From: Chloroflexota bacterium
GTDB lineage: Bacteria; Chloroflexota; Dehalococcoidia; JACQUA01
Direction: 5' to 3'
NCBI GenBank assembly: GCA_016210565.1
Contig: JACQUA010000037.1
Coordinates: forward strand, 1 to 32,000
DNA: 32,000 nucleotides
Each line of letters begins with the position of its first letter. Position 1 is the first letter of the stretch. Both the position numbers and the translations under genes were made by a program. Positions 11,459 to 25,683 of this stretch are shown here, piece after piece. The notes beneath the pieces were generated by a model. The model did not search any database, was not told the DNA's origin, and saw only the letters and a list, made by a program, of their open reading frames with translations.

Positions 11459-12169
11459 TTGAACGAAGTCCTCCTCTTAGAGGAAAAACTGAATGTCAGT
11501 TTCCGCGACAAGGCCCTCCTGGAGCAGGCCCTGGTTCACAGTTCCTTCCTCAACGAGAACCCCCAGGCCACCGCGGCTTCCAACGAACGGATGGAGTTCC
11601 TTGGCGATGCTCTGATAGGACTGGTGGTCGCTCGCGAGCTCTATTTGGGCTATCCCGATTTGGCCGAAGGGCAGATGACCCGCCTGCGGGCTTCGATCAT
11701 CAATGGAGAGGTCCTGGCGGGGCGGGCCAAAGCCCTGGGCGTGGGAGACTGCCTTATCCTGGGAAAGGGAGAGGAGCTGGACGGTGGGCGGGACAAAGAA
11801 AGAAACCTGGCGGGGGCTTTTGAGGCGGTCATGGGGGCCTTGCTCGTGGACCAGGGACTCGAGGTTGCCAGCGAAGCCGTGGTGAGGCTGCTGGACGAGG
11901 AAATCAAGAATGCCGTAGAAGGCAGGACCGGCGTTGATCATAAGTCGGAGCTTCAGGAGCTGGTGCAAAAAGTGTACCGGATGACTCCGAGTTATCGCGT
12001 GGCGGCGGCGGATGGGCCGGAGCACCAGCGGCGCTTCACTGCCGAACTATTCGTCGGCGAGGATTTGCTGGGGACCGGGACCGGGCCGAGCAAACACAAG
12101 GCAGAGCGGGAGGCGGCAAGGGCCGCACTGGAGAAGCTGAAAGGGGAGGGAGTAGGGAGTAGGGAGTAG
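11459..12169 (+). CDS. rnc: Ribonuclease III
   Basis: RNase III signature NERMEFLGDALIGLVVA. The C-terminal dsRBD has DHKSELQELVQ ... GPEHQRRF ... GTGPSKHKAEREAARAALEKL. The start is placed at in-frame TTG 11459 (MNEVLLLEEKLNVSF..) with GAAAGG upstream. The ORF-track start 11303 would add an implausible repeat-derived N-terminus. The exact start is uncertain. Confidence 0.88.
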   Translation: MNEVLLLEEKLNVSFRDKALLEQALVHSSFLNENPQATAASNERMEFLGDALIGLVVARELYLGYPDLAEGQMTRLRASIINGEVLAGRAKALGVGDCLILGKGEELDGGRDKERNLAGAFEAVMGALLVDQGLEVASEAVVRLLDEEIKNAVEGRTGVDHKSELQELVQKVYRMTPSYRVAAADGPEHQRRFTAELFVGEDLLGTGTGPSKHKAEREAARAALEKLKGEGVGSRE

Positions 12170-12257
12170 GAAGGGTAGGAAGAGTAGGAAGGGTAGGAAG
12201 GGTAGGAAGGGTAGGAAGGGTAGGAAGGGTAGGAAGAGTAGGAAGAGTAGCAAAGTA
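12147..12257 (+). repeat. Short-period tandem array (AGTAGGG)x2 then about 9 x 9-bp GTAGGAAGG/GTAGGAAGA units, overlapping the rnc stop codon
   Basis: Read directly. TAG occurs in every unit, and the rnc stop TAG (12167-12169) is one of them. The sense strand is essentially C-free. GGG runs at 12191, 12200, 12209, 12218 and 12227 have 6-nt spacers. Confidence 0.95.
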
Positions 12258-12371
12258 GTTAGAGCAAGCAGTTAGCCGAGCGGGTGGGTAAGCATCCCGA
12301 TGCAATCGGGATGGGAACCCAGCAGAGCAAGGGGCACCAGAACGAAGCTGTGCAAGCCGTCCGAGAACAAC

Positions 12372-12463: not shown

Positions 12464-13990
12464 ATGGTCGAGAGGAACATCACGAGCCTGAGAGGCGCCC
12501 TGGACTATTTGAATTCCATCGGGGAACTATCTGTGGTGAAGGGAGAGGTGAGCCCTATCCTGGAGATTTCGGGCATCCAGAAGGCCCTGGAAAACGGGCC
12601 AACCCTGTTGTTCGAGAACATTCAGGGCTATCCCTGGGTCAGGGATGTGGGGAACATCTTCTCCCGCCGGGAGAGGGTAGCCAAACTCTTTGGCGCGGAT
12701 GATTACAAGCAGGTCAAATTCAAGTGCCAGGAGGCAATCCGCCATCCGCTGCCGGTGAAAGAGGTCACCGAGGCGCCTTGCCAGGAAGTGGTCATCGACC
12801 GGGACATAGATGTCATGGGGACCCTGCCCATATTGAAACATACCGAAAGGGACGGCGCCAGGATTCTGGGCGGGGGCAACACGTTGATCAGCGGCAAGTT
12901 CTTCCGGGGCGGCACACACATTTCTTTCAACCGGATGAGTTTTCGGGGAAAGGACTGGGGGACCATCTCTTTCGGCTCCGGCAATCACGCGGAATGGGTA
13001 ACCTACATCGAGCACCGTTCGGAGACGATTCCGGTGACCATCAACATCGGCAATCCGCCGGCGGTGACCGCCGCCGCGGCAGCCGGTTTCCTCCATCCCA
13101 TTGTGCCCATCGGCGCCGACGAGCTGGGGTTTTCGGGCGCGCTCCAGGGGTCGCCGGTGGAACTGGTTAAGGCGAAGACCGTGGACGCTTATGCCATCGC
13201 CCAGGCGGAATGGGTTATCGAGGGCTGGGTGAACAGCAAGGAGCGGGCCTGGGAAACCGAAGAGGCGGAGAAACTGGGTCGGATCGGGGTGGCGCCCTTT
13301 TTCCCGGAGTGGACGGGATACCTGGGAAGGGCCTACCGTCTACTGAAGTTCCACGTCACCGCCATCACGCACCGGCGTAACCGTCCCATCTTCTTCTCCC
13401 CCCTGGCCAATGGTTTCGAGACTGACATCGGCGGATCGCTGTTCCGTGAAGCCTGCTTCCTGGAACTGGCCGACCGCATGAGGCCCGGGCTGGTCCAGGA
13501 CGTCAATACGTTCGAAGGGGTGGCGGGGTGGGCGGGGCACGTGGTCTTCCAGGTGAAGAAAGCGCGGCGGGCCGATGAAGGCCACCAGAGGAACCTTCTG
13601 AGCGCGGCGCTGGCGGCGGCCCAGGGGCAGCGTCTGGTGATAGTGGTGGACGAGGATGTGGACATCTACAGCCCGGAGGACGTGCTCTGGGCTTTGACCA
13701 CCCGGCTGAATCCCGGCACGGGCCTCGTGCGCATAGCGGCGGGCGGCATGGGACAGGCGCTGATGCCGATGGAAAGATCAGGGATCGCCGTTCAGTCCAG
13801 CGAAGAGATCCGGCACGAAGGCGGCCTGGGTTTGGACGCTACCGTTCCCTTTGACGGCAAATGGAATTTCGAGAGGGCCAAACATCCGGGAGACAAGGTC
13901 GACCTGAAGAGATGGTTTACGGCTGAGGAGCTCGCCCGGATCAGGGAACAGCAGAGTCCCTATGCCCGGCTGATGGCGGTGAAGGGGTAG
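12464..13990 (+). CDS. UbiD-family (prFMN-dependent) decarboxylase/carboxylase, divergent subgroup, paralog 1
   Basis: 508 aa with a good SD (AAGGAG, 6 nt upstream). UbiD N-terminus LRGALDYLNSIGELSVVKGEVSPILEISGIQKALENGPTLLFENIQGYP. Motifs NRMSFR, GNH, GADELGF and AEWVIEG. Has APFFPEWTGY in place of the canonical E-G-P-F-G-E-x-T-G-Y. Confidence 0.9.
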   Translation: MVERNITSLRGALDYLNSIGELSVVKGEVSPILEISGIQKALENGPTLLFENIQGYPWVRDVGNIFSRRERVAKLFGADDYKQVKFKCQEAIRHPLPVKEVTEAPCQEVVIDRDIDVMGTLPILKHTERDGARILGGGNTLISGKFFRGGTHISFNRMSFRGKDWGTISFGSGNHAEWVTYIEHRSETIPVTINIGNPPAVTAAAAAGFLHPIVPIGADELGFSGALQGSPVELVKAKTVDAYAIAQAEWVIEGWVNSKERAWETEEAEKLGRIGVAPFFPEWTGYLGRAYRLLKFHVTAITHRRNRPIFFSPLANGFETDIGGSLFREACFLELADRMRPGLVQDVNTFEGVAGWAGHVVFQVKKARRADEGHQRNLLSAALAAAQGQRLVIVVDEDVDIYSPEDVLWALTTRLNPGTGLVRIAAGGMGQALMPMERSGIAVQSSEEIRHEGGLGLDATVPFDGKWNFERAKHPGDKVDLKRWFTAEELARIREQQSPYARLMAVKG

Positions 13991-14126
13991 GGGGCGAATA
14001 ATCCCGTAGCGGCAGGACTTGCCCCTGACGGGGCAGGGCGAGGATGGGTGGTCCGCCGCCGCGGCGATGTCGGCAGGGCGCGGTGACCTCAGCCGACAGG
14101 CTGGAAAGCCTGTCGTACCGGGGGAG

Positions 14127-14156
14127 TTGACGGGGCCAGCCGAAATCCTGTATAAA
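14127..14156 (+). promoter_or_regulatory. Candidate sigma-70 promoter upstream of ligase 1 (TTGACG-18 nt-TATAAA)
   Basis: Hexamers at 14127-14132 and 14151-14156, about 65 nt upstream of ATG 14222. Pattern match only. Confidence 0.3.
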
Positions 14157-14221
14157 TTACCAGTTACGCGACCCCTTCTGGAAACCAGCATCGGAGGGAT
14201 TCGACGAAGGAGAATTTCTAA

Positions 14222-15871
14222 ATGGCGATTCCGGCGCGGTACACTCCACAGATGATGGAGGAATACCTGAAGACTGGCCAGTGGAACCCCGTTCCCTGGC
14301 CGGAGGTCTGGGACAATAACGCCAGGGATTTCCCGAACCATGAGGCTATTTGCGATGCCAGGACCCGCTTGACCTGGGGCCAGGCGAAAGAGTGGATCGA
14401 CCGGTTCGCTCTGGGGTTTCTGGAGATGGGTTTCAAAAGAGACGAGGTCATGGTTATCCAGCTACCCAACTCGGCGGAGCTGGCCCTCCTCCGCCTCGCC
14501 TGTGAGAAAGCAGGAATTCTTTGCGCTCCCGTTCTGCGCACCCTGCGGCACAAAGAGATGGAGTACATCCTCAGCTTCACCGGCGCCCGGGGTATCATCA
14601 TCCCGCTGGAGTTCCGCGGTTTCAATTATCTTCAGATGGTACAGGAGATCCGTCCCGTCCTGCCTGGTCTGAAAGACGTCTTCGTCGCCGGGGATGTGGC
14701 GCCCGCCGGGTGCGTCTCGATCAAAGAGATGCTGCAGAAACCCCTGGAAAAGAAATATCCCCCAGGCTATTTGAAGAAGTTCACCTATGATGCCAGGGAG
14801 ACTTCCTGGATCAGCCACACCAGCGGCAGCACGGGCTTTCCCAAGTTTGTCCAGATACCAGCGGTGGCACGGCGCAGCCTCTGCGAGGGCCAGGTGCATG
14901 TCCTGAAACTGACTCAGAAGGACGTCGTCGGGGCCCTTTCCCCGGCCACCGGCGGGCCGAACATCATCACCTACTGGGCGGCGGCGATGGTGGGCGCCAG
15001 GGTGGTCATGATGGAGCATTTCGAGGCCGAAGAGGCGATGCAGCTTATCCAGAAAGAGAAAATAAGCGTGGCAGGGCTGGTCCCCACCATGCTGACCGGC
15101 ATACTGCGTCATCCCAACCGGCACAAGTATGACTTGAGCTCGATGCGGGCCTGGTACTGCGCTGCCGGGACCCCGCCATTTCAATTGGTCAAGGAGCTTG
15201 AGGAGACGGTGGGCGGGAAGGTGATCCAGGCCTATGGAGCCGTGGATTACGGTTGCGCCACCAATGCCGGGCTGGACGACTCGATGGAAGTCAGGGTGCT
15301 CACGGCCGGCAAGCCGTGCTGGGGCGCCCGCCTGAAGATAGTCGATGACAATGGCAACGAGTTGCCCCGGGGGGAGGTGGGAGAGGTGTGGGGGACCGGC
15401 CCCGGAGGCGTCGGCGGCTATTACAAAGATGAAAAGGCTACCTGGGAAGCCTGGACCAGGGACAACTGGTACCGCACCGGGGACCTGGGAAAGATCAATG
15501 AAGACGGCAACCTGCTCATCGTGGGGCGGAAAAAGGAGATGATCAAACGGGGCGGACAGAACATCTACCCTATCGAGGTAGAGAAATTGCTGATAACCCA
15601 TCCCAGGGTGAACGACGTGGCTGTGGTGGGCATGCCGGACCCGGAGATGCTGGAAAGGGCCTGCGCCTACGTGGTCCCCAAGCCGGGGCAGAAATTTCTC
15701 TTTGACGATATGTCGGAGTTCTTGAAAGAAAAGGGCCTGGCGCCTTTCAAAATCCCGGAGAGGCTGGAAATCCTGGAAAAGATGCCCATGCTGGCGGCCG
15801 ACCAGAAGATCGACAAGAAGGTCCTGAAGGCGGACATTGTCGAAAAGCTAAAAGCCGAGGGTAAGGTCTAG
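14222..15871 (+). CDS. AMP-forming acyl/aryl-CoA ligase (ANL superfamily, EntE/DhbE-like aryl-acid activating type), copy 1
   Basis: 549 aa with SD GAAGGAG. Motifs: A3 HTSGSTGFPKFV, A5 YGAVDYG, A7 YRTGDLG, A8 GRKKEMIKRGGQNIYPIEVE, and a C-terminal lysine region DQKIDKKVL. The N-terminus (Y..G.W......W ... VIQLPN..E) resembles 2,3-dihydroxybenzoate-AMP ligase-type enzymes. Confidence 0.9.
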   Translation: MAIPARYTPQMMEEYLKTGQWNPVPWPEVWDNNARDFPNHEAICDARTRLTWGQAKEWIDRFALGFLEMGFKRDEVMVIQLPNSAELALLRLACEKAGILCAPVLRTLRHKEMEYILSFTGARGIIIPLEFRGFNYLQMVQEIRPVLPGLKDVFVAGDVAPAGCVSIKEMLQKPLEKKYPPGYLKKFTYDARETSWISHTSGSTGFPKFVQIPAVARRSLCEGQVHVLKLTQKDVVGALSPATGGPNIITYWAAAMVGARVVMMEHFEAEEAMQLIQKEKISVAGLVPTMLTGILRHPNRHKYDLSSMRAWYCAAGTPPFQLVKELEETVGGKVIQAYGAVDYGCATNAGLDDSMEVRVLTAGKPCWGARLKIVDDNGNELPRGEVGEVWGTGPGGVGGYYKDEKATWEAWTRDNWYRTGDLGKINEDGNLLIVGRKKEMIKRGGQNIYPIEVEKLLITHPRVNDVAVVGMPDPEMLERACAYVVPKPGQKFLFDDMSEFLKEKGLAPFKIPERLEILEKMPMLAADQKIDKKVLKADIVEKLKAEGKV

Positions 15872-15873
15872 CT

Positions 15874-15894
15874 TTGCAAGGGGTCCCCTTGCAA
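15874..15894. promoter_or_regulatory. Perfect 21-bp palindrome TTGCAAGGGG-T-CCCCTTGCAA between ligase 1 and ubiX
   Basis: 10+1+10 perfect dyad read directly. Begins 3 nt after the ligase stop and ends 20 nt before the ubiX ATG. No T-run follows, so it is not a canonical intrinsic terminator. It could be an operator or an RNA hairpin. Confidence 0.5.
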
Positions 15895-15913
15895 ATGTGA
15901 AGGGCTGACAAGA

Positions 15914-16477
15914 ATGGTACTCATCATCGCCATCACCGGCGCCTCCGGCGCCATCTATGGAATCAGGTTGCTGGAAGTGCTCAAACAGGCCGGGGACGTG
16001 GAAACCCACCTGGTCATTTCCGAGGCCGCGGCGCGTACCATCGAGTACGAGACCACCTACACCGTGGCCGGGGTCATGAAACTGGCGCACCACTGCTATG
16101 ACAACAAAGATGTCGGCGCGGCGCTGGCCAGCGGGTCCTTCCGCCGCGACGGCATGGTGGTCATGCCGTGCTCGGTCAAAACCATGGGGGCCCTGGCCCA
16201 TTCTTATTCGGAGAACCTGATTATCCGCGCCGGAGACGTGACTTTGAAGGAGCGGAAAAGGCTGGTGCTGGTGGTCAGGGAAACGCCGCTGCATCTCGGC
16301 CACTTGAGAAACATGGTGCAGCTTACGGAAATGGGCGCCGTGATCCTGCCGCCGGTGACCAATTTCTACAGCAAGCCGAAAACCATCGATGACCTGATCA
16401 ACCATATCGTCGGCCGCACGCTCGACCTTTTTGGCATCGACCATTCCCTGGTGAAGCGGTGGAAGGGGGAGGGGTAG
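15914..16477 (+). CDS. ubiX: Flavin prenyltransferase UbiX (prFMN synthase)
   Basis: 187 aa. Has MVLIIAITGASGAIYGIRLLEVL, MVVMPCSVKTMGALAHSYSENLIIRAGDVTLKERKRLVLVVRETPLH and GAVILPPVTNFY, all typical UbiX/Pad1 signatures. Confidence 0.95.
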   Translation: MVLIIAITGASGAIYGIRLLEVLKQAGDVETHLVISEAAARTIEYETTYTVAGVMKLAHHCYDNKDVGAALASGSFRRDGMVVMPCSVKTMGALAHSYSENLIIRAGDVTLKERKRLVLVVRETPLHLGHLRNMVQLTEMGAVILPPVTNFYSKPKTIDDLINHIVGRTLDLFGIDHSLVKRWKGEG

Positions 16478-16590
16478 TGATGTGGGGTTTGAAGGTTCAT
16501 AAGGTTATAAGGTTGGAAGGCTCGAAAGTTTGGCGGTTGAAAAGAGTAGAGGGTGATAGCTGACAACTGACCTCTGATAGCTACCCCAGA
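16478..16590 (+). repeat. Low-complexity short-repeat tract directly after the ubiX stop (AAGGTT-type units, then TGATAGC-type units)
   Basis: Sequence: TGATGTGGGGTTTGAAGGTTCATAAGGTTATAAGGTTGGAAGGCTCGAAAGTTTGGCGGTTGAAAAGAGTAGAGGGTGATAGCTGACAACTGACCTCTGATAGCTAC. It shares AAGGTT units with 4694-4742 and 5419-5457. Confidence 0.8.
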
Positions 16591-16624
16591 GGCTACCCCG
16601 GAGAACTCAAATAAGGAGGAGCGA

Positions 16625-17365
16625 ATGGCTACCGACTACGAGAACCTGCTCGACCTGGTGAGACGGAGGCGGAGCACCAGGCGCTACAAGCCGGACCCGG
16701 TGGCGGACGGGGACATCGAAAAGATAATCGAAGTGGCGCGGTGGGCTATGTCCGGGGCCAACGCCCAGCCCTGGGAATTCGTGGTGGTGAAAGACGGGAA
16801 TACCAGGGCAGAGATATTCGAACTGTACAAGCTACACCGGACGCAGACAGACGTGTTCAACAAGCTGCTGCCCCCGGAACTGAAGCATCCGGTCACGGGT
16901 ACGCTCAAGGCCGGCCAGCCTTCTTTCAGAGACGCCCCGGTGTTTATAGTGGTCTGCGGCGACAGCCGGACTCTGCTGGCCACCAGCCTGTCTGCGGAGA
17001 TAATGGGCTACGAACGCACAACGTATCATTTCAATCTGGCTAATGCCACGATGCTGGTCCACCTGGCGGCTGCTTCCTTGGGTCTGGGGACGCAGTGGAT
17101 CAGCACCAGCCCGATCTGGGAAGGGAAGCTGAAGACCCTTCTTGGCATACCCGACTGGTTTACGGTCCCGCATCTGGCGCCCCTGGGCTACCGCGATTAC
17201 ACGCCGCCACCGCCGTACCGGCGCGAGGTGTCCGAAATACTCCACCGGGAAGAATACGAACAGTCAAAATTCCGGACGGATGAGCAGGTCCTGGAGTACA
17301 TCGCGCTGGTAAGAAATCGGGCCAGGGCGGCGTACTACATTCCGCCCGAAAAAGGGAAGAAGTGA
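16625..17365 (+). CDS. Nitroreductase-family FMN flavoprotein
   Basis: 246 aa with a strong SD (AAGGAGGAG). Has RRSTRRYKPDPV...IIEVARWAMSGANAQPWEFVVVKD, typical of the nitroreductase fold. Confidence 0.85.
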   Translation: MATDYENLLDLVRRRRSTRRYKPDPVADGDIEKIIEVARWAMSGANAQPWEFVVVKDGNTRAEIFELYKLHRTQTDVFNKLLPPELKHPVTGTLKAGQPSFRDAPVFIVVCGDSRTLLATSLSAEIMGYERTTYHFNLANATMLVHLAAASLGLGTQWISTSPIWEGKLKTLLGIPDWFTVPHLAPLGYRDYTPPPPYRREVSEILHREEYEQSKFRTDEQVLEYIALVRNRARAAYYIPPEKGKK

Positions 17366-17396
17366 CAGAGAAATGAGATAGAGATAGAGAAGCCGC

Positions 17397-17842
17397 GTAG
17401 GGTGGGTTAAGCACAGTGGGGCCTGGGGAAGATGGGTGGCTGGGCGAACCCACCGTTCGACGCCAATTCCAATAACCAACCCCTGACTGAATCGGGGGCC
17501 AAAAGACTCCAACAACGAAATTCCAAATGAGAAAACCGACGGAGCCCTTTTGGGGGCTAGACCATTGGGATTTTCATATTGCTCCGAAAATGTCACCCTG
17601 AGCGCAGTCGAAGGGTCTTTCGTCCGGCGCCCCACCTCGAAAGATTCTTCGACTATCCCGATTCTATCGGGACTGCGCTCGCTTCGCACAGAATGACATT
17701 TTCATCGTTCATTGTCCCGACTCGTCGGGATGGCCGATTGTTGTTTGGAATTTGGCTTTTGGGATTTGGAATTTCGCGTCGTTGGTGGGTTCGCGCAACC
17801 ACCCCGGTCAGCACCGCCCCATTTGCGCTTAACCCACCCTAC
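17397..17842. repeat. 446-bp nested palindromic composite (MITE-like) with no coding capacity
   Basis: Family A copy (+) at 17397-17454 and inverted family A copy at 17784-17842. Just inside these are inverted AATTCCAA-type low-complexity blocks (about 17457-17528 and 17738-17781). At the centre is a 108-bp family B hairpin element (17591-17698, TGTCACCCTGAGCGCAGTCGAAGGG...CGCTCGCTTCGCACAGAATGACA) plus a GTCCCGA hairpin (17714-17731). Confidence 0.8.
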
Positions 17843-17885
17843 CCGTATTGTGTCCTTTATTGTTAGCGGTCGAAAGAGTGACGGC

Positions 17886-18518
17886 ATGGCAACGGGTAAT
17901 ATTTTGACGAGACTGGAGGACGTGGCATCCCCGGCGCATACGGCGCTGGTGGTCATCGACGTCCAGAATGACTTCTGCCACCCGGAGGGCGCCATCGGGC
18001 GCAGCGGCAACGACCTGGGCCTTGTCCAGCAGATACTGCCGGGACTGTCCGCGTTCCTGTTGGGCGCGCGCCGGCTGGGGGTGAAGCCCGTCTTTATCCG
18101 GAACGTTTACAGCGCCCGCTATGTTCCGGTGTCCATGAGGGAGGCCCTGGAACGCAGGGGGTCTAAACCGAACTGCCTGCCCGGTAGCTGGGGCGCCGGT
18201 TTTGTGGAAAGTTGCGGCCCGGAAAAGGATGAGCTGGTCTTCGAAAAGCACTGTTACGATGCCACTACCAACAGGCGTTTTACCAGCTTCCTGAAGTCAG
18301 GAAACTATAGGACCGTGGTGTACTGCGGGGTGATGACCAACGTTTGCGTGGAGACCACCGCCAGGTCGACGGCCATGGCTGGATACTATCTGGTCGTGGT
18401 GGAAGACTGCGTCGCGAGTTACGACCGCGAAAGCCACCGGGTTACGCTCCGGAACCTGGACAAATACTTCGGGAGGGTGGTAAAGTCGGCCGACCTGCTG
18501 GCTGGCTGGGCCAGATGA
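17886..18518 (+). CDS. Isochorismatase-like (cysteine hydrolase) family protein
   Basis: From ATG 17886 (210 aa). Has ALVVIDVQNDFCHPEG and the catalytic Cys context GVMTNVCVETTARSTA. ORF-track residues 1-58 are translated repeats. Confidence 0.85.
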   Translation: MATGNILTRLEDVASPAHTALVVIDVQNDFCHPEGAIGRSGNDLGLVQQILPGLSAFLLGARRLGVKPVFIRNVYSARYVPVSMREALERRGSKPNCLPGSWGAGFVESCGPEKDELVFEKHCYDATTNRRFTSFLKSGNYRTVVYCGVMTNVCVETTARSTAMAGYYLVVVEDCVASYDRESHRVTLRNLDKYFGRVVKSADLLAGWAR

Positions 18519-18547
18519 TGGCGGCAAACGATGAAGCTACGCGAAAG

Positions 18548-18556
18548 TGCTATAAT
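18548..18556 (+). promoter_or_regulatory. Candidate extended -10 promoter element TGcTATAAT upstream of UbiD paralog 2
   Basis: Exact TGnTATAAT match with no convincing -35. It lies about 150 nt upstream of the proposed start at 18707. Pattern match only. Confidence 0.3.
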
Positions 18557-18580
18557 ACAGTCTCCTTAGCCCAGGATTCC

Positions 18581-18647
18581 GTAGGGGCAGACCCGTCCCG
18601 ACTTGTCGGGACCCGCGTGGCGGGCGAACACCGGGGTTCGCCCCTAC
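18581..18647. repeat. 67-bp REP-like element with terminal inverted repeats GTAGGGGC...GCCCCTAC and an internal GTCCCGACTTGTCGGGAC hairpin
   Basis: Read directly. It explains the non-homologous N-terminal extension of ORF 18344..20224. Confidence 0.8.
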
Positions 18648-18706
18648 GGAGCGATTCGCAACGTGCGGTCTCTGGTCCGGGACCGAAACCAGAAGGGATA
18701 ACAGAT

Positions 18707-20224
18707 TTGTTGAAACCTCAGCTTAAGAACCTGCGGAGCACCGTACCCTATTTGAAGAGACTCGGTGACTTGATGGTGGTGAGAGGGGCGGTGGACCCCA
18801 TCTATGAAATCGCAGGCATCCAGAAAGCCCTGGACGGTGGGCCGGCCCTTCTTTTCGAAAACATCAAGGGCTATCCCGGGGTGCGCGATATCGGTAATGT
18901 GTTCAGCCAGAAGTCCCGGGCGCCTTTGCTGTTTGCGGTGGACGGCCCCCGGGAATTCAAGTTGCTCTGCCGGCAGGCGATCGCTAGGCCGCTGCGGCCC
19001 CGGGTGGTGAAGCAGGCCCCGAGCCAGGAAGTGGTCGTCACCGAGAAGCTGGATGTCCCGGCCACGTTACCCATCCTCAAGCATACCGACAGGGACGGCG
19101 GGCGCATCCTGGGGAGCGGGGTTATCCTGGTGGGCGGGGAGTTCTTCAAAGGGGGAAGGGAACTATCCTTCAAACGCATGAACTTCCGTGGCAAGGACTG
19201 GGGCAGCATCAAGGCCCTCCGGGGCACGCACTTCGGCGACCTGGCCCTGAAGGAGCACCGCGGCGCAACGATTCCCCTGACGGTGAATATCGCCCCTCCT
19301 CCGGCGGTGCTGGTTGTGGCCGGAGGCGGCTCACTCCATGCCATCGTGCCCGCCGGCGCCGATGAGCTGGCCATCGCCGGCGGACTTCAGGACTCGCCGG
19401 TCGCCCTGGTCAAAGCCCGGACCGTGGATGCCTACGCCATCGCCGAAGCCGAGTGGGTGATCGAAGGATATGTGGATACAAGGGAGAGAGTCTGGGAGAC
19501 CGACGAGGCGGAGAAAACGGGGAAGTTCGGCGCCGCGCCCTTCTTCCCGGAATGGGCCGGCTACATGGGCTGGGCGGTGCGCACGCTCAAGTTCCACGCC
19601 ACGGCCATTACCCATCGCCGGGACGGGCCTATCTTTTTCAGTCCGTTGGCCCGCTCTTTCGAAGGGGATAACCTCGTGGCCATGCTCCGGGAGGCCTGTT
19701 TTTGGGAGCTGGCGGAGCGGGAGTATCCGGGATTCGTCCAGGATGTGAACATCCTCCACGGAGTCACCGCTTCCAGCGGCGTCGTTTTCCAGGTGAGGAA
19801 GGGTGGCGCTGAAGAAGGGTTCCAGCGCAATCTTATCGGCAGCGCCTTTGCCGCCTCGCCGACCATGCGAATGGTGGTGGTGGTGGACGAGGATATCGAC
19901 ATATACAGCGCCGAAGATGTGCTGTGGGCGATCACCACCCGGTGTCAACCGGGTAGCGGGGTCATCAGAGGCCCGGGCGGGCGGAGGATTGTGATGTTCC
20001 CTTCGGACACCCTGGGCGCCACCGGAGAGGATGGGGACTTCCTGGTGGAAGCCGGTATCGGCTTTGATGCTACGGTACCCCTGCCGGCAAAGGTCCACTT
20101 CGAGAGACCCCATTTCCCCGTGGACAAAGTCGATCTTAAACGCTGGTTCACCGAGAGGGACCTCGTCAAAGCCAGGTTGAAACAGAGTGAATACGGTAAG
20201 GTACTGGGCCTCAACGGGTGGTAA
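18707..20224 (+). CDS. UbiD-family protein, divergent subgroup, paralog 2
   Basis: Homology to paralog 1 begins at LRSTVPYLKRLGDLMVVRGAVDPIYEIAGIQKALDGGPALLFENIKGYP. The start is placed at TTG 18707 (or 18710) with GAAGGG about 10 nt upstream, giving about 505 aa against 508 and 511 aa for paralogs 1 and 3. Motifs KRMNFR, GTH, GADELAI and APFFPEWAGY. Confidence 0.88.
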   Translation: MLKPQLKNLRSTVPYLKRLGDLMVVRGAVDPIYEIAGIQKALDGGPALLFENIKGYPGVRDIGNVFSQKSRAPLLFAVDGPREFKLLCRQAIARPLRPRVVKQAPSQEVVVTEKLDVPATLPILKHTDRDGGRILGSGVILVGGEFFKGGRELSFKRMNFRGKDWGSIKALRGTHFGDLALKEHRGATIPLTVNIAPPPAVLVVAGGGSLHAIVPAGADELAIAGGLQDSPVALVKARTVDAYAIAEAEWVIEGYVDTRERVWETDEAEKTGKFGAAPFFPEWAGYMGWAVRTLKFHATAITHRRDGPIFFSPLARSFEGDNLVAMLREACFWELAEREYPGFVQDVNILHGVTASSGVVFQVRKGGAEEGFQRNLIGSAFAASPTMRMVVVVDEDIDIYSAEDVLWAITTRCQPGSGVIRGPGGRRIVMFPSDTLGATGEDGDFLVEAGIGFDATVPLPAKVHFERPHFPVDKVDLKRWFTERDLVKARLKQSEYGKVLGLNGW

Positions 20225-20249
20225 AAGAAGATCAAAGGCCGAAATGGAA

Positions 20250-20338
20250 TGTCACTGCGAGCGAAGCGAAGGAATCCCCCAGTTGGCTCTACATCCGGGG
20301 GATTGCTTCGTCCCGAATAAATCGGGACTCGCAATGAC
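20250..20338. repeat. 89-bp hairpin element, family C (TGTCACTGCGAGCGAAGCGAAGGAATC...GACTCGCAATGAC)
   Basis: Terminal inverted repeats with internal hairpins CCCCCAG..GGGGG and GTCCCGAATAAATCGGGAC. The core is related to the 41-bp units at 31330-31487. Confidence 0.75.
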
Positions 20339-20364
20339 GGTCAATAACTCAAGGAACTCATCCT

Positions 20365-22008
20365 ATGGCTAAGCCAGTGCGCTTTACCCCTGAAATGATA
20401 AAGCACTACCAGAGCCTGGGAATCTGGACCTCTGACAGGCTTTCCGAATACTGGGACAAGAACGCCGCGGAACGTCCGGACAGGGAAGCCGTGGCAGACT
20501 CGCGGGGCAGGCTGACCTGGGCGCAGGCAAAGCAGTGGATCGACCGCATGGCCCTGGGACTGCTGGGACTCGGCTTTACCAGGGATGACATGCTGGCGGT
20601 GCAACTCCCTAACTGTGTCGAGCTCATGCTGCTCCGGATAGCCACGGAAAAGGTCTGTGTGCTGTGCCTGCCCGTCCTGAGGACCTTCCGCCAACAGGAA
20701 ATGGAATATATTCTGAAACGGACCGGGGCGGTGGGGCTGGTCGTCCCGTGGCGCTATCGCGGCTTCGATTATTTCCAGATGGTACAGGAAATAAGACCGG
20801 CTCTGCCGAACCTGAAACACGTGATCTCAGCCTGGGACGACATCCCTCCGGGTACGATTCCGCTAAAGGGCATCGTCGAGAAGCCTTCGGAGCGGGACTA
20901 CCCCGGCGACTATCTGAAGAAGACCACCTGCCCCCCCGTGGAGTACTCTCTGGTATTGACCACCAGCGGAACGACGGGATTCCCCAAGTTCGTGGAACAC
21001 CCGGTGTGCAGCCGCATCTATATCGGGAAGGTCTACGCCAAGGGCTGGAAGATCACCGAGAGCGACGTGATCGGCGTACTGGGTCCGGCCGCCACAGGCC
21101 CCAACCACGCCGCTTACTGGTCGGCCCCCTTGGTGGGCGCCCGGTGCGTCATGCTGGAGCATTTCGAAGCGGAGGCCGCCCTGCGACTGATTGAAAAGGA
21201 AAGAATAACGTTTACCGGTTTTGTCCCGGCGCAGCTCGCCCTTCTGCTGCGGCACCCCAATTTCGACCGCTACGACCTTAGCTCGCTGAGGTGCGTTGTG
21301 TGCACCGGCGCTCCTTTGAGCTACAAGCTGGGCGTTGAGGCTGAGGCGAAGCTGAAATGTCCCATCGTCCAGTCGTACGGCTCGGTAGACGCCGGCGGCT
21401 CGATGATGCACTACCCCGAAGACTCCCAGGAAGTCCGCCTTCTCACGGCAGGTCGCCCCATGCCGGGTGTGGAAATGAAAATAGTTGATGACTCCGGCCG
21501 GGAGGCGCCCAGGGGGGCGGTGGGCGAGGTCTGGGTCCGCGGTCCAACGTTCGTTTCCGGCTACTACAAAGACCCGGAAGCTACCTCCCATGGCTGGACG
21601 CCCGATGGCTGGTTCCAGATGGGCGATCTCGGGAAGTGGAATGACGGCAACATCATGATTGTCGGACGCAAGAAAGACATGATCATCCGGGGCGGCCAGA
21701 ATGTCTATCCCGTGGAGATTGAGAACTTGCTGGTACTGCATCCCAAAGTGGCCGGCGTCGCCGTCGTGGGTATGCCCGACCCGGTCATGGGAGAACGGGC
21801 CTGTGCCTTCGTCGTGCCCAGGCCGGGCGCGGAGTTCACTTTTGAGGAGATGGTCTCATTCCTGAAGGAAAAGAACATCGCCATGTTCAAAATTCCGGAG
21901 CGCCTCGAACTGCTGGAGCGTTTCCCGATGGTGGCCGCCGACCAGAAGGTAGACAAGAAGGTCTTGCAGCAAATCATCCGCGACAAGCTGGCCGGCGAGG
22001 GGAAGTAG
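20365..22008 (+). CDS. AMP-forming acyl/aryl-CoA ligase (ANL superfamily), copy 2, paralog of 14222..15871
   Basis: 547 aa, colinear with copy 1 and identical at roughly half of positions by eye. Motifs TTSGTTGFPKFV, YGSVDAG, FQMGDLG, GRKKDMIIRGGQNVYPVEIE and DQKVDKKVL. Confidence 0.9.
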   Translation: MAKPVRFTPEMIKHYQSLGIWTSDRLSEYWDKNAAERPDREAVADSRGRLTWAQAKQWIDRMALGLLGLGFTRDDMLAVQLPNCVELMLLRIATEKVCVLCLPVLRTFRQQEMEYILKRTGAVGLVVPWRYRGFDYFQMVQEIRPALPNLKHVISAWDDIPPGTIPLKGIVEKPSERDYPGDYLKKTTCPPVEYSLVLTTSGTTGFPKFVEHPVCSRIYIGKVYAKGWKITESDVIGVLGPAATGPNHAAYWSAPLVGARCVMLEHFEAEAALRLIEKERITFTGFVPAQLALLLRHPNFDRYDLSSLRCVVCTGAPLSYKLGVEAEAKLKCPIVQSYGSVDAGGSMMHYPEDSQEVRLLTAGRPMPGVEMKIVDDSGREAPRGAVGEVWVRGPTFVSGYYKDPEATSHGWTPDGWFQMGDLGKWNDGNIMIVGRKKDMIIRGGQNVYPVEIENLLVLHPKVAGVAVVGMPDPVMGERACAFVVPRPGAEFTFEEMVSFLKEKNIAMFKIPERLELLERFPMVAADQKVDKKVLQQIIRDKLAGEGK

Positions 22009-22060
22009 CCAGTAGTGAGTAGCGAGTAGTGAGTAGGCAGTAGCCAGTAGCCAGTAGCAC
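22004..22060 (+). repeat. About eight 7-bp tandem units (AGTAGNN: AGTAGCC/AGTAGTG/AGTAGCG/AGTAGGC) overlapping the ligase 2 stop codon
   Basis: Read directly. TAG occurs in every unit, and the gene's stop TAG (22006-22008) is the first of them. Confidence 0.9.
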
Positions 22061-22230
22061 AGACGTCCCGCCTGTGACAGCGATCAGTAGTAGGTCGGGC
22101 TGGCTGCGCGAACCCACCGAACCCGGTACGACGGGCTTCCAGCCCGTCGGCTTCGGTCTCGTCCCTGCGGGCGGGACGCAGGGAATCGCTACGGGCAGGA
22201 CGCCCGTAATACTTTTAGTTAGGAGAAGAA

Positions 22231-23766
22231 ATGCCCTCTCGAAACAAGAACGAAGCTATCAGGAGCTTGAGGAGCACAGTCGACTTGCTGGAGCAGAGTG
22301 GGGAGTTGCTGAGAATAAAGGGTGAGGTGGACCCTATCTATGAAATATCGGGTATTCAAATGGCCCTGGAGTCCGGCCCGGCCATACTTTTCGAAAACAT
22401 CAAGGGCTATCCCCACGCCAGGGACATCGGCAATGTTTTCGCCCGGCGGGACAGGATCGCGAAGATGTTCGGGACCGACGACCACCGCCAGTTGAAGTTC
22501 AAGTGCATCGATGCCATGACCAACCCCATAAAGCCCAGGGTTGTGGAGCGCGCCGCCTGCCAGGAAGTGGTCATCAAAGAAAACATCGATGTCCTCAACT
22601 ATTTGCCCGTGCTGAAGCATACCGTCAAGGACGGGGGACGCATCATCGGCGGCGGCAACATGTTCATCAGCGGCAAGTACTTCAAGGGCGGCACCCACGT
22701 GTCCTTCAACCGGACCCATTTCCAGGGGAAGGACTGGGCCAGCATGCAGGCCTTTGTCGGCACCCACCTCGGGGACAGCTTCTTTGTCCACCGGGGCGAA
22801 CAGGTGCCGATGACCATCAACATCGGCAATCCGCCGGCGGTGACTTTCGTCGCCGGCGGCACGGTGATGCACACCCTGCTCCCCCGGGGGACCGACAAGC
22901 TGGGCATCGCCGGGGCGTTGCAGGGCTACCCGGTAGACATTGTGCCGTGCAAGACGGTGGATGCTTTCGCCATTGCCGAGGCGGAATGGGTGATCGAAGG
23001 CTACATGGACACGACTGAGCGGGTCTGGGAAAGCCCCGAAGCCAACAAGGTGGAAGCCTACGGCGCAGCGCCCTTCTTCCCGGAGTGGCCGGGTTACATG
23101 GGACGGGCCATGAAGACATTCAAGTTTCAGGCTACGGCCATTACCCACCGGAAAGACCGCCCCATCTTCTTCAGCCCGCTGGCCCATTCCTATGAGGGGG
23201 ATATTCTGTGCGCCATGCTCCGGGAGGCCTGTTTGTACGAGCTGGTTGACCGGCTGATACCGGGTCTGGTGAAAGATGTCTACATCCTGGACGGCGTCGG
23301 GCCGCGCGCCCACGTCATCTTCCAGGTGGAGAAAAGAAGGCCTGGCGACGAGGGCTACTCGAAAAACATCATCACCGCCGCTTTTGGCGCCACCCAGGGC
23401 CTCTACCTGGTCGTGGTGGTCGACGAGGACGTCGATATCTACAGCGCGGATGACGTGATGTGGGCCATCATCACCAGGTTGAACCCCGAGACGGGCATTC
23501 TGCGTGGCACCGTGGGTGGGCGGGGCTCGCCGATGATGCCCCTGGAGAGAGTCGGCTTGAGCGGCAAGGTGGTGGGTGAGTTCCATTATCCGGGCGGCCT
23601 CGGTCTGGACTGCACCGTTCCTTTTGGCGAAAAGTGGGCCTTCGACCGGGGGAGATACCCGGTGGACCGCGTCGATTTGAAGAGATGGCTAACGGACGAG
23701 CAGATTGCGGCCGTCAAGGCCGTCCAGCCTGACTTTGCGAAACTGATGGCAAAGAGGGGTGGTTAG
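22231..23766 (+). CDS. UbiD-family protein, divergent subgroup, paralog 3 (key catalytic/metal positions substituted)
   Basis: 511 aa with SD AGGAG. Colinear with paralogs 1 and 2 (LRSTVDLLEQSGELLRIKGEVDPIYEISGIQMALESGPAILFENIKGYP). Motifs NRTHFQ, GTH, GTDKLGI and APFFPEWPGY. Confidence 0.88.
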   Translation: MPSRNKNEAIRSLRSTVDLLEQSGELLRIKGEVDPIYEISGIQMALESGPAILFENIKGYPHARDIGNVFARRDRIAKMFGTDDHRQLKFKCIDAMTNPIKPRVVERAACQEVVIKENIDVLNYLPVLKHTVKDGGRIIGGGNMFISGKYFKGGTHVSFNRTHFQGKDWASMQAFVGTHLGDSFFVHRGEQVPMTINIGNPPAVTFVAGGTVMHTLLPRGTDKLGIAGALQGYPVDIVPCKTVDAFAIAEAEWVIEGYMDTTERVWESPEANKVEAYGAAPFFPEWPGYMGRAMKTFKFQATAITHRKDRPIFFSPLAHSYEGDILCAMLREACLYELVDRLIPGLVKDVYILDGVGPRAHVIFQVEKRRPGDEGYSKNIITAAFGATQGLYLVVVVDEDVDIYSADDVMWAIITRLNPETGILRGTVGGRGSPMMPLERVGLSGKVVGEFHYPGGLGLDCTVPFGEKWAFDRGRYPVDRVDLKRWLTDEQIAAVKAVQPDFAKLMAKRGG

Positions 23767-24066
23767 GCTGTGGAGAAGTTAATGCAGACGCACTACATTG
23801 ACCCGGATTACGCATCAGGCCGGCGGGGTTGTAGCCGCAGGTCTTTAGCCTGCGGGGGTGGGGAAAAGTGAAGCCCACGAATAGTTCATGTATAGAATAT
23901 TGTGTCATCTCATCGTCTCTGTGTTCTCGGGTGTCTCTGTGGTGAAAGCTCACGCTTTTCGTTGGCACACCGCACGTTGCTCGGGCGTGACTCGCTCATC
24001 TTCATCCTTGAATATTGCCGCTGATAGCCGAAAGCTGATAGCTGTTAACTTTTCGATGGAGGAAAC

Positions 24067-25683
24067 ATGGCTTACTACAAAGACCTCAGGGAACACATCA
24101 AGGCATTGGAGGCGGCGGGGAAGCTGGTCCGGATAAAGAGACCGATCATCAAGGAAACTGAACTTCATCCCCTGGTCCGGTGGCAGTTCCGGGGATTGCC
24201 GGAAGAGGAAAGGAAGGCCTTCCTGTTCGAAAACGTCGTCGACGTCAAGGGGAAGAAATATGACATGCCGGTGCTGGTGGCCTCGCATGCCGCCTCTCGC
24301 CAGGTTTACGCCATCGGGATGATGTGCAAGCCGGAAGAGATCATGGACCGGTGGTCCAACGCCGAGCTTCACCAGGTGGACCCGGTCACGGTATGCACGG
24401 GGCCGGTCTGCGAAGAAATATTCAAAGGAGACAGGCTGATGGAGCGCGGGTGTCTGGAGGAGTTTCCCATACCTATCTCCACACCAGGCATGGACAACGC
24501 GCCCTACCTGACGGCGGCCAACTGGGTAACGAAAGACCCCGAGACCGGCATCCCCAATGTCGGCAACTACCGCGCCATGTTGAAAAGCCCGACGCGCCTG
24601 GGCATCTGCTCCCTGGCCACGCAGCATCTCAGGGAACACTGGGACCGCTGCCGGGCGAAGGGGATTCCTTTGCAGGCGGCTATTGTCATGGGTGCTTCCC
24701 CCGCGGTAGGATACGTGGCCACGGCCAAGTTGCCCTACGGGACAAACGAGTTCAGAGTGGCCGGAGGGATTGCCGGAGCGCCACTGGAGATGGTCAAGTG
24801 CCAGACGGTCGACCTGGAAGTTCCCGCCACTTCTGAAATCGTCATCGAGGGAATAATGCCCACCGACTTCCAGGAGCGGGAAGCGCCGTTCGGCGAATAC
24901 ACAGGTTACATGGGCATGGAAGCGATCAACCCGGTATTGAATGTGACCTGCGTCATGCACCGGAAGAACCCCATTTACAACGCTTTCCTCAGCCAGTTCC
25001 CGCCCAGCGAAAGCAGCAAGCTGCGCCAGATTGGCACTGAGGCCGTCTTCTACAAGTTCTTGAAGCATGACTGCAACATTCCCGGCATCCTCGGCGTGTC
25101 CATCCATGAAAGCAGCGGCGCCGCCGAGTACATTGTCATCAGCATGAAGAAGACCCATCCCTCCCAGGCCTGGCAGGCTCTGAACGGCGCCGCGGCGTTC
25201 ATACCGAACGTTGGTAAGATCATCATTGTCGTGGATGAAGACATCGACCCGGCGGACCCGGACTCGGTGAACTGGGCGCTGAGCTTCCGCATGCAACCCC
25301 ACCGCGATTTGAGGGTCAGTCATGGCAAGGTTTCGGGGCTGGACCCGTCCTCCGCTCCCATGACCGATCCCAACCGTCGCTATCCGGGCGTCCAGGGGGC
25401 GTCGGTCCTTTTGCTCGACGCGACGCGAAAATGGCCCTATCCGCCGACTTCGCTTCCCAAGAAAGAGTTCATGGAACACGCCCGGAAGATCTGGGAGGAG
25501 GAGGGTCTGCCGAAGCTCACCCCAAAGAAGCCCTGGTTTGGCTATAATCTCGGCTTCTGGAGCACGGAGTATGACGAGGAAGCGCAGCTAGCACTAAAGG
25601 GAGAGTATTTCAAAACAGGGGAAAAGCTGGCCAAACGCCGGATAACGGGGGAGGCAGCCAAGAGCATGGGCGAGGGAGGATAG
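24067..25683 (+). CDS. UbiD-family decarboxylase/carboxylase, canonical type, paralog 4
   Basis: 538 aa with SD GGAGG. Canonical motifs NVGNYR, QH, NEFRVAGG, SEIVIEG and EREAPFGEYTGYMG (the E-x-P-F-G-E-x-T-G-Y signature). Confidence 0.92.
   Translation: MAYYKDLREHIKALEAAGKLVRIKRPIIKETELHPLVRWQFRGLPEEERKAFLFENVVDVKGKKYDMPVLVASHAASRQVYAIGMMCKPEEIMDRWSNAELHQVDPVTVCTGPVCEEIFKGDRLMERGCLEEFPIPISTPGMDNAPYLTAANWVTKDPETGIPNVGNYRAMLKSPTRLGICSLATQHLREHWDRCRAKGIPLQAAIVMGASPAVGYVATAKLPYGTNEFRVAGGIAGAPLEMVKCQTVDLEVPATSEIVIEGIMPTDFQEREAPFGEYTGYMGMEAINPVLNVTCVMHRKNPIYNAFLSQFPPSESSKLRQIGTEAVFYKFLKHDCNIPGILGVSIHESSGAAEYIVISMKKTHPSQAWQALNGAAAFIPNVGKIIIVVDEDIDPADPDSVNWALSFRMQPHRDLRVSHGKVSGLDPSSAPMTDPNRRYPGVQGASVLLLDATRKWPYPPTSLPKKEFMEHARKIWEEEGLPKLTPKKPWFGYNLGFWSTEYDEEAQLALKGEYFKTGEKLAKRRITGEAAKSMGEGG

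Follow-up and report, generated by a model that had tools for sequence, protein, structure and literature searches.

Three phthaloyl-CoA decarboxylase-like UbiD paralogs clustered with two CoA ligases, UbiX and a fourth UbiD in Chloroflexi: a candidate system for activation and decarboxylation of aromatic acids

Anaerobic bacteria do not decarboxylate phthalate directly but form a CoA thioester first, by means of a CoA-transferase in denitrifiers and of an ATP-dependent ligase in Desulfosarcina and Syntrophorhabdus, after which a UbiD-family enzyme of the phthaloyl-CoA decarboxylase (PCD) or isophthaloyl-CoA decarboxylase (IPCD) type, equipped with prenylated flavin mononucleotide (prFMN) made by UbiX, gives benzoyl-CoA (PMC13040137, PMC9516798). 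The anaerobic route for terephthalate is genetically and biochemically unresolved (PMC13040137). Here we analyse a 32,000-nt stretch of DNA from a Chloroflexota bacterium (Dehalococcoidia; assembly GCA_016210565.1, contig JACQUA010000037.1, positions 1 to 32,000; hereafter the window), which carries at 12464-25683 a cluster of nine consecutive + strand genes, among them four UbiD genes (UbiD1-4), two ligase genes (Lig1 and Lig2) and UbiX. Most likely, judging by analogy with the described systems, the cluster is catabolic and follows an 'activate, then decarboxylate' scheme, that is, the logic of anaerobic o-phthalate and isophthalate degradation, here in multiple copies. The genes, as confirmed by ORF listing, Pfam and NCBIfam, are:

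12464-13990, + strand: UbiD1, 508 aa, PCD-like prFMN decarboxylase (Pfam UbiD_N, UbiD, UbiD_C)
14222-15871, + strand: Lig1, 549 aa, ATP-dependent acyl/aryl-CoA ligase of the ANL superfamily (AMP-binding, AMP-binding_C)
15914-16477, + strand: UbiX flavin prenyltransferase, 187 aa (NCBIfam above cut-off; Pfam Flavoprotein)
16625-17365, + strand: nitroreductase-family flavoprotein, 246 aa (Pfam Nitroreductase)
17886-18518, + strand: isochorismatase-family cysteine hydrolase, amidase-type, ~210 aa (Pfam Isochorismatase)
18707-20224, + strand: UbiD2, 505 aa, PCD-like prFMN decarboxylase (the three UbiD domains)
20365-22008, + strand: Lig2, 547 aa, ATP-dependent acyl/aryl-CoA ligase (AMP-binding domains)
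22231-23766, + strand: UbiD3, 511 aa, PCD-like prFMN decarboxylase (the three UbiD domains)
24067-25683, + strand: UbiD4, 538 aa, UbiD-family (de)carboxylase of a separate clade

An earlier note on this DNA had listed nine same-strand genes in this order and had spoken of four UbiD genes of two types, and both statements hold: UbiD1, UbiD2 and UbiD3 are 54-56% identical to one another, with UbiD4 at only 25-32% identity to the three. The two ligases share 55% identity. The start of UbiD2 is most likely the TTG at 18707 (505 aa, in agreement with the NCBI protein P0091) rather than the mechanical ORF start at 18344, and that of the hydrolase most likely the ATG at 17886 (210 aa) rather than 17712. 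At NCBI the nine proteins carry consecutive records (MBI4330029-037, from a Chloroflexi metagenome-assembled genome, MAG, on a contig of 62,310 bp) with generic names throughout. All ORFs of at least 150 aa in the cluster are either the nine genes or out-of-frame or antisense ORFs overlapping them; the long antisense ones within cluster genes (e.g. 22219-23586 and 23950-25479, - strand) were treated as high-GC artefacts, and three small ORFs tested in the gaps between cluster genes had no Pfam match. The ORF and domain scans also agree with the note in finding no small subunit, CoA transferase or benzoyl-CoA reductase in the window. In particular, the window encodes no CoA transferase, no small subunit of the AbcD/PpcD/LpdD type and no ParA/MinD-like ATPase, and an LpdD-like query against it returned nothing (E > 0.3).

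UbiD1-3 belong to the PCD clade. Each of them has UbiD_N, UbiD and UbiD_C above the Pfam gathering scores. In searches of PDB sequences, run with UbiD1 and UbiD3, the best solved relative was in both cases the PCD of Thauera, matched over the full length (8oz5/8p02/8pmk, E 1.2e-114 and 387 bits for UbiD1; E ~1e-105 and 354 bits for UbiD3), and the next best was AroY, at about 1e-51 (177-185 bits). UbiD2 was placed by means of a six-sequence alignment, in which identity to PCD is 39.6% for UbiD1, 38.4% for UbiD2 and 36.2% for UbiD3. PCD and UbiD1-3 have in common a ~13-residue insertion ahead of the catalytic Glu of the (F/H)PEW motif, as well as a 5-residue insertion (GFLHP/GFDYA), neither of which is found in UbiD4 or in HmfF (2,5-furandicarboxylate decarboxylase). 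In a neighbour-joining tree of 90 UbiD sequences, rooted on HmfF, without bootstrap values and with few characterised outgroups, Thauera PCD falls inside the clade of UbiD1-3, and UbiD4 is placed elsewhere. UbiD1, the one protein modelled among the three, gave an AlphaFold model of pLDDT 93.2 from a 90-sequence alignment; it superposes on chain 8oz5_A, PCD with the inhibitor 2-CN-benzoyl-CoA, with a TM score of 0.96/0.95 and an rmsd of 1.6 Å over 510 columns, the next-best structural matches being HmfF and AroY (TM 0.75-0.81).

The active site appears in full in all of these proteins. Residues R157, E249, E264 and E282 (UbiD1 numbering) are invariant across 90 relatives and H175 is at least 90% conserved, R157, E264 and E282 aligning with the equivalent residues of HmfF; in line with the UbiD family in general, R157, E264, E282, E249 and H175 would be the catalytic Arg/Glu/Glu and metal ligands. 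The whole set of catalytic and cofactor-binding residues is retained in every paralog, and none resembles a degenerate scaffold. In the tree each paralog has an ortholog group of its own, and the three groups differ from one another by fixed residues at 16 alignment columns; UbiD1-3 are old paralogs and probably differ in specificity. No UbiD of the cluster reaches the UbiD or MqnL equivalog cut-offs of NCBIfam, and with the models for phenylphosphate carboxylase (Ppc) alpha and beta, which stand in for the PpcA/PpcB/AbcA clade (an indirect comparison as regards AbcA), all four score 58-129 bits against cut-offs of 565 and 469. A likeness of UbiD1-3 to the benzene, naphthalene or phenylphosphate carboxylases is thus not supported by their sequences.

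The two ligases reach no NCBIfam equivalog either, and their top models are FadD-like, AliA (cyclohexanecarboxylate) and DhbE (2,3-dihydroxybenzoate-AMP ligase). The best solved relative of Lig1 is DhbE (1md9, 231 bits) and those of Lig2 are salicylate-AMP ligase and DhbE, the scores of the ligases to these two enzymes being 231-252 bits, and the ANL fold is retained with its P-loop, T(S)SG(S/T)TGFPK, and its C-terminal catalytic Lys motif. Ligases for benzoate, naphthoate and phenanthroate belong to the benzoate-CoA-ligase and PaaK clades (PMC8388817). Among the 60 best PDB matches listed, benzoate-CoA ligase is represented only by malonyl-CoA-synthetase/benzoate-CoA-ligase chimeras, and PaaK does not occur. 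Because their top models and solved relatives are FadD/AliA/DhbE-like, Lig1 and Lig2 are classed, from sequence, as DhbE/AliA-like and as neither benzoate-CoA-ligase-type nor PaaK-type. At the pocket positions of DhbE (H234, N235, Y236, S240, V329 and V337), the residues of Lig1 are T, G, G, I, A and A in an alignment of only ~30% identity, which suggests that its pocket is larger and non-polar. The 2,3-dihydroxybenzoate/salicylate pocket (DhbE N235, Y236 and S240) is not retained in Lig1, and no carrier protein is encoded in the window. The ligase subfamily is large, with over 120 clusters that have at least 51% identity, most of them from Chloroflexi and Desulfobacterales, and its members are labelled 'peptide arylation enzyme' by JGI. 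Among the loci collected for comparison (numbered with the prefix L), orthologs of Lig2 (71-79%) occur in L001, L007, L017, L170 and L171, always beside a PCD-like UbiD, and an ortholog of Lig1 (81% identical) occupies the same position in L001. When metagenomes were scanned with the ligase alignment, the relatives among the matches listed had at most 39% identity and none adjoined a UbiD, which makes for a weak negative control.

The supply of prFMN is accounted for within the cluster: UbiX scores 268 bits with PRK06029 (cut-off 188) and 258 bits with TIGR00421 (cut-off 109), and the copy in L001 is 86% identical to it. That locus, a groundwater metagenome contig, has the order UbiD1-Lig1-UbiX-UbiD2-Lig2-UbiD3-UbiD4, followed by a superoxide dismutase (SOD) gene on the opposite strand, with proteins 75-89% identical to those of the window and intergenic gaps of 15-190 nt. 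Two Chloroflexi MAGs, L171 (GCA_016189925.1) and L170 (GCA_041642995.1), have LigX-UbiD2-Lig2-UbiD3-UbiD4 at 76-89% identity, the third ligase paralog, LigX, having ~50% identity to both Lig1 and Lig2; downstream, L171 shares the HEAT/SOD/amine-oxidase context of the window. The earlier note had proposed gene order in related genomes as a check on the cluster, and the order is conserved, over seven genes in L001 and over the shorter block in L170 and L171. Since that block is kept in all three while the genes upstream of it differ, the conserved core is UbiD2-Lig2-UbiD3-UbiD4, found in four Chloroflexi assemblies, and the upstream module varies. Taken singly, UbiD1 has orthologs in L001, L004, L005 and L084. 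UbiD2 has orthologs (75-80%) in L001, L017, L170 and L171, each of these four adjoining a Lig-type ligase. In L017, a Desulfobacterales bin, a UbiD2-Lig2 pair is found (75% and 71% identity) on a 5-kb contig for which mis-binning is possible. UbiD3 has orthologs (87-90%) in L001, L007, L170 and L171, with UbiD4 next to it in L001, L170 and L171 (the L007 sequence ends too soon), and UbiD4 has orthologs (86-87%) in L001, L170 and L171. The joint conservation of UbiX, the UbiDs and the ligases supports the view that the cluster is functionally coherent.

An association with CoA-activating enzymes extends to the wider PCD-like clade. Scanning one genome for each GTDB species gave 548 PCD-like relatives, of which the best 80 were surveyed for taxonomy and neighbourhood; these come from Dehalococcoidia, Desulfobacterales, Syntrophales, Syntrophorhabdus, Methylomirabilota/Rokubacteria, Clostridia and Alphaproteobacteria, and one of the relatives, from a Syntrophorhabdus MAG, originates from a terephthalate reactor. 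A CoA-activating enzyme, meaning an AMP-ligase, a PaaK-type ligase, a family III CoA-transferase or an ADP-forming acyl-CoA synthetase, lies within 3 kb of 41 of the 65 PCD-like genes with at least 4 kb of flank, and parts of TRAP/TAXI or TTT carboxylate transporters lie within 3 kb of 13 of these 65. Counted by locus, after clustering of the neighbouring ORFs and checking of the representatives against Pfam, the neighbours of PCD-like UbiDs include AMP-ligases (28 loci), family III CoA-transferases, the activation type used for phthalate by denitrifiers (13), fused TRAP permeases (10), Amidohydro_2 proteins (10), enoyl-CoA hydratases (9), TAXI receptors (8), molybdenum hydroxylases (8), PaaK-type ligases (5), ADP-forming acyl-CoA synthetases (5) and TctC receptors (5). 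A second UbiD, from outside the PCD clade, is present in 23 of the 80 loci.

Placement of UbiD1-3 in the PCD clade, together with co-encoded UbiX and ligases, favours ligation first and decarboxylation second, one of two directions that the earlier note had considered. We give a probability of roughly 0.6 to the reading that Lig1 and Lig2 produce carboxyaryl-CoA thioesters for UbiD1-3 to decarboxylate. In such a scheme, a di- or polycarboxylic acid with its carboxyl groups on an aromatic or heteroaromatic ring would be turned into the mono-CoA thioester by Lig1 and Lig2 at the expense of ATP, and UbiD1-3, with prFMN from the co-encoded UbiX, would then strip the remaining free ring carboxyl off the thioester. 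The product would be an aryl-CoA, either benzoyl-CoA or an analog, for whose degradation genes elsewhere in the genome would supply the enzymes. With its three old paralogs and two ligases, the cluster would most likely provide parallel or sequential routes for different isomers or substitution patterns, and UbiD4 would probably (de)carboxylate either a related free acid, as HmfF does ahead of thioester formation, or a further thioester from the same family of substrates. The genes for the nitroreductase and the cysteine hydrolase would be a lineage-specific insertion and not part of the core. Candidate substrates are the phthalate isomers, terephthalate included, or natural polycarboxylated aromatics.

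A number of points weigh against this reading. UbiD1-3 are not orthologs of the characterised PCD, to which they are only 36-40% identical and from which they are separated on other branches of the clade; for this reason we do not call them phthaloyl-CoA decarboxylases, nor is phthaloyl-CoA itself implied as the substrate, and no substrate can be read from the sequence. The pocket positions of Lig1 are taken by small non-polar residues, among which a cationic partner for a second carboxylate is not apparent, and in the family of Lig1 and Lig2 we found no characterised member that activates an aromatic dicarboxylate. All 13 of 13 Lig-type ligases adjoin UbiDs, but this count is biased since the loci were fetched with UbiD queries. 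The UbiD1 ortholog of GCA_041642995.1 (L084) is solitary, with no ligase nearby. No transporter, regulator, benzoyl-CoA reductase or other downstream gene lies within the window, and the role of UbiD4 is a guess.

Compared with the described phthalate systems, the cluster is closest in logic to that of Desulfosarcina cetonica, in which a labile carboxyaryl-CoA is formed by an ATP-dependent ligase (PCL) and then decarboxylated by a UbiD of the PCD type, with UbiX encoded alongside (PMC13040137). That system, however, has one ligase and one UbiD, whereas here there are three deep PCD-like paralogs, two ligases and a fourth UbiD, which is of another clade; the window has no transporter, and the host belongs to the Chloroflexi. 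Denitrifiers (Thauera, Aromatoleum and Azoarcus) combine succinyl-CoA:phthalate CoA-transferase with PCD, so that the decarboxylase family is the same as that of UbiD1-3, but activation here would be by AMP-forming ligases and not by CoA transfer. In Syntrophorhabdus aromaticivorans, a ligase (IPCL) likewise precedes a UbiD, isophthaloyl-CoA decarboxylase, with UbiX (PMC9516798), and UbiDs of Syntrophorhabdus MAGs (L046 and L056) fall in the same clade and are 47-49% identical to UbiD1. IPCL is, however, a PaaK-type enzyme of ~50 kDa, in contrast to the DhbE/FadD-like Lig1 and Lig2 of ~61 kDa, and the IPCL cloning primers (PMC9516798) had no match in any of the collected loci. No description of this cluster, or of PCD-type enzymes in Chloroflexi, was found in the open-access papers searched, and the view that no characterised pathway has the same composition stands. 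The label 'undescribed system' fits in part: this is a multi-paralog variant of the ligase/PCD/UbiX logic with an uncharacterised UbiD class added to it, but the type of pathway is a known one.

UbiD4 passes the subfamily cut-off of TIGR00148 (258 bits against 245) and reaches no equivalog. Its best, and closest, solved relative is HmfF (6h6x, E 3e-58, 35.9% identity), with which it shares the E-x4-E motif and the Arg; the identity is low, and no hmf genes lie beside UbiD4 in the window. In the Hmf pathway, the free dicarboxylic acid is decarboxylated before CoA ligation. UbiD4 has a C-terminal extension of ~90 residues relative to HmfF and, with its canonical E-x4-E motif (EAPFGE) and catalytic Arg, appears to be catalytically intact. 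More than 7,900 relatives were found at E <= 1e-20; among the 120 listed, all named ones bear generic UbiD-family names only, and the named sources are mostly Chloroflexi, Dehalococcoidia and Desulfobacterales. As far as these sequences tell, UbiD4 represents a separate, very large and uncharacterised Chloroflexi/Desulfobacterales clade of UbiD. At L089 (8280-11584), a ligase 52% identical to Lig1 and Lig2 lies directly upstream of a UbiD4-family gene (65% identical), the pair being flanked by genes for a cupin and an Amidohydro_2 protein; a PCD-like UbiD is missing from its vicinity. Because this pair lacks a PCD-like UbiD, the UbiD4 clade may have its own partnership with the Lig-type ligase family. 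In an exact-sequence look-up, UbiD4 (538 aa) was found in a '90% identity' cluster together with radical SAM/SPASM fragments of 52-56 aa, which looks like a clustering artefact of the collection and not biology.

The nitroreductase and hydrolase genes, which the earlier note had listed among the nine genes, are missing from L001, L170 and L171 and are window-specific accessory genes and not core parts. The nitroreductase, whose relatives in the PDB are generic nitroreductases only and which is a singleton among 171 loci, directly follows UbiX in the window genome alone. It could conceivably be a redox helper in the oxidation of prFMNH2, though it shows no homology to PhdC and no conservation; a role as PhdC-like prFMN maturase was rejected as a matter of homology, PhdC being an HpaC-like flavin reductase (PMC13040415). 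Among solved structures, the hydrolase is closest to RutB, biuret hydrolase and other cysteine hydrolases (E 1e-19 to 1e-15). An EntB-type isochorismatase was considered for it and dropped, since EntB (2fq1) matches at just E 5.7e-5 and the protein, at ~210 aa, is without the carrier-protein (ArCP) domain.

Other genes with a known or conceivable tie to prFMN were seen here and in related loci. LpdD is a prFMNH2 chaperone (PMC10865409). An LpdD-type gene (PF21758), of which the window has none, lies between the UbiD3 and UbiD4 orthologs of L170 (6981-7346), and such genes stand next to UbiX in three further PCD-like loci (L014 10943-11290, L081 469-738 and L082 426-698). In the window itself, a CTP-dependent riboflavin kinase (PF01982, archaeal-type, FMN-forming) is encoded at 4830-5246 on the - strand, some 7 kb before the UbiX/UbiD cluster begins, and is bracketed by a composite inverted repeat of short tandem units at ~4695-4846 and 5265-5455.

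Other explanations of the locus have to be weighed against activation followed by decarboxylation. The three PCD-like paralogs, with or without UbiD4, could be the subunits of one multi-subunit enzyme acting on a single substrate new to the family, which we regard as improbable. UbiD2-Lig2-UbiD3-UbiD4 do occur together in four genomes, the 23 of 80 PCD-like loci with a second UbiD from outside the clade would be in keeping with such a complex, and multi-UbiD complexes have precedents in the alpha and beta subunits of phenylphosphate carboxylase and in the ~750-kDa naphthalene carboxylase (PMC12016498). All paralogs, however, are catalytically complete, with no degenerate scaffold among them, and the solved PCD entries consist of a single protein species in 6-12 identical chains; moreover, the UbiD1 ortholog stands single in L084, the UbiD2 ortholog is part of a simple UbiD-ligase pair in L017, and the fixed differences specific to each paralog group fit separate specificities. 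It is quite improbable, in our estimate, that the reaction starts with carboxylation, one or more UbiDs carboxylating an unactivated (hetero)aromatic and the ligase pulling the reaction by thioesterification, as has been suggested for benzene, naphthalene and phenanthrene. In its favour, catalysis by UbiD enzymes can in principle run both ways, UbiD4 is uncharacterised and has in L089 a relative directly after a Lig-type ligase with no PCD-like UbiD nearby, and the layout of several UbiD genes beside a ligase and UbiX is superficially that of the abcDA-bzlA-ubiX benzene cluster and of the N47 naphthalene cluster (PMC12016498), and is seen with the phenylphosphate carboxylases too. Those carboxylase systems, however, have UbiDs of the AbcA/PpcA-like clade and benzoate-CoA or PaaK ligases, and they need small subunits or ParA/MinD-like proteins (PMC12016498, PMC8388817). 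The present cluster differs in each respect: UbiD1-3 are PCD-clade enzymes, all four UbiDs are far under the Ppc alpha and beta cut-offs, the ligases are of neither type, and neither an AbcD/PpcD/LpdD-like small subunit nor a ParA/MinD-like ATPase is found in the window. The same observations speak against a carboxylation system resembling the benzene and naphthalene carboxylases, one of the framings of the earlier note.

A biosynthetic role, with a siderophore-like aryl compound or a quinone as the joint product of DhbE-like enzymes, the isochorismatase-family protein and UbiD/UbiX, seems very improbable. DhbE, EntE and salicylate-AMP ligases are the best solved relatives of the ligases, in line with the 'peptide arylation enzyme' label of JGI, an isochorismatase-family gene lies between the two ligase genes, and UbiD and UbiX function in quinone biosynthesis. 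Yet the window has no carrier protein, nonribosomal peptide synthetase, isochorismate synthase or dehydrogenase; the hydrolase resembles RutB and biuret hydrolase rather than EntB and is missing from L001, L170 and L171; DhbE N235, Y236 and S240 are replaced by G, G and I; no UbiD reaches the UbiD/MqnL equivalog cut-offs; and elsewhere the neighbours of the clade are catabolic (CoA-transferases, TRAP transporters and enoyl-CoA hydratases). Least probable of all is that the paralogs are adjacent by chance and not functionally coupled. Chloroflexi genomes do hold many UbiD and ligase paralogs, and the UbiD1 ortholog is solitary in one MAG, but four assemblies agree in gene order although their proteins are only 74-90% identical, a bin from another phylum retains the UbiD2-Lig2 pair and the gaps in L001 are 15-190 nt; we thus reject chance adjacency on account of the order kept in L001, L170 and L171.

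The window is GC-rich (52-65% per 1-kb segment) with no compositional break near the cluster, and the flanks are housekeeping, with RNase III, a PKD-rich subtilase, a CCA-adding enzyme and a DinG-like helicase upstream and a HEAT-repeat protein, an Fe/Mn SOD, an amine-oxidase-like flavoprotein and a B12-radical SAM enzyme downstream. The subtilase (7003-11034) is a secreted-type Peptidase_S8 protein of 1343 aa with six PKD domains that derive from repeats of ~243 nt, and PKD-rich surface proteins are also encoded near related clusters, e.g. at L085 1522-4992. L085 has a UbiD-ligase pair with two HGD-D proteins after it and an AFOR gene upstream; these neighbours were not counted as evidence for a downstream pathway, as they are below the benzoyl-CoA reductase cut-offs. 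Pairs of hydantoinase A/B genes (acetone/acetophenone-carboxylase superfamily) recur beside PCD-like or UbiD4-like genes in L085 (7011-21126), L006, L023 and L088, a pattern seen in Chloroflexi and Desulfobacterales, where HGD-D (benzoyl-CoA reductase/double-cubane-like), AFOR, Mo-hydroxylase and Amidohydro_2 genes recur likewise. Their recurrence hints at larger aromatic-acid catabolic islands around PCD-like and UbiD4-like genes.

The intergenic gaps are filled by genome-wide repeat elements and not by conserved regulatory motifs. A scan with Rfam gave no RNA element, and promoter and terminator scans were uninformative. REP-like palindromes of the form TCCCGA-N4-7-TCGGGA number 8, against 0.02 expected; they lie at 6750, 12295, 12384, 17656, 17715, 18596, 20311 and 31217, that is, in several of the intergenic gaps of the cluster and outside it as well. 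A 14-mer, TTAACCCACCCTAC, occurs 4 times, as inverted pairs. Both the palindromes and TTAACCCACCCTAC look like genome-wide intergenic repeats and not like cluster-specific signals. Just upstream of UbiD1, a 9-nt tandem repeat (GTAGGAAGG, ~10 copies) at 12148-12271 runs across the RNase III stop codon, and at 31287-31484 there are 4 copies of a 41-nt tandem repeat containing GCGCTTCGCTCGCAATGACAT, which is also found singly at 17674, 20249 and 26885. The sequence CTGATAGCT, at 12436, 16553/16574 and 24021/24035, lies ~25-70 nt ahead of the UbiD1, nitroreductase and UbiD4 start codons; it was considered as a shared operator and dropped, and since it is not conserved at the matching positions of L001 it is probably repeat-derived.

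A tentative and, on balance, unlikely extension of the ligase-then-decarboxylase reading is that UbiD1-3, the two ligases and UbiD4 form a funnel that strips carboxyls from a family of benzene di- and polycarboxylic acids. Possible variants would be the use of all three phthalate isomers or the stepwise decarboxylation of natural benzenepolycarboxylates from humic matter, lignin or black carbon. Were this so, at least one of the UbiDs would be the long-sought terephthaloyl-CoA decarboxylase, or one of the isophthaloyl-CoA type, and the degradation of 'xenobiotic' phthalates would have been recruited from an old natural pathway, as shown by the wide and deep distribution of the clade. If instead the substrates are ordinary, e.g. 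o-phthalate with redundancy, the cluster would simply be another case of a known pathway. In either case it links a very large unnamed UbiD clade to aromatic-acid metabolism, and it offers further prFMN enzymes and aryl-acid ligases for the biocatalysis toolbox. PCD-type decarboxylases have been regarded as recent adaptations to man-made phthalates. The clade, however, has members in Chloroflexi, Methylomirabilota, Desulfobacterota and Syntrophorhabdus, over 500 loci being counted among GTDB species representatives, and because it is so deep and broad it argues for natural substrates that predate plastics. It also suggests an old and widespread natural origin for the pathway of 'xenobiotic' phthalates. 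Three old PCD-type paralogs with dedicated ligases are candidate genes, in uncultured groundwater Chloroflexi, for the missing enzymes of terephthalate degradation or for those specific to other isomers.

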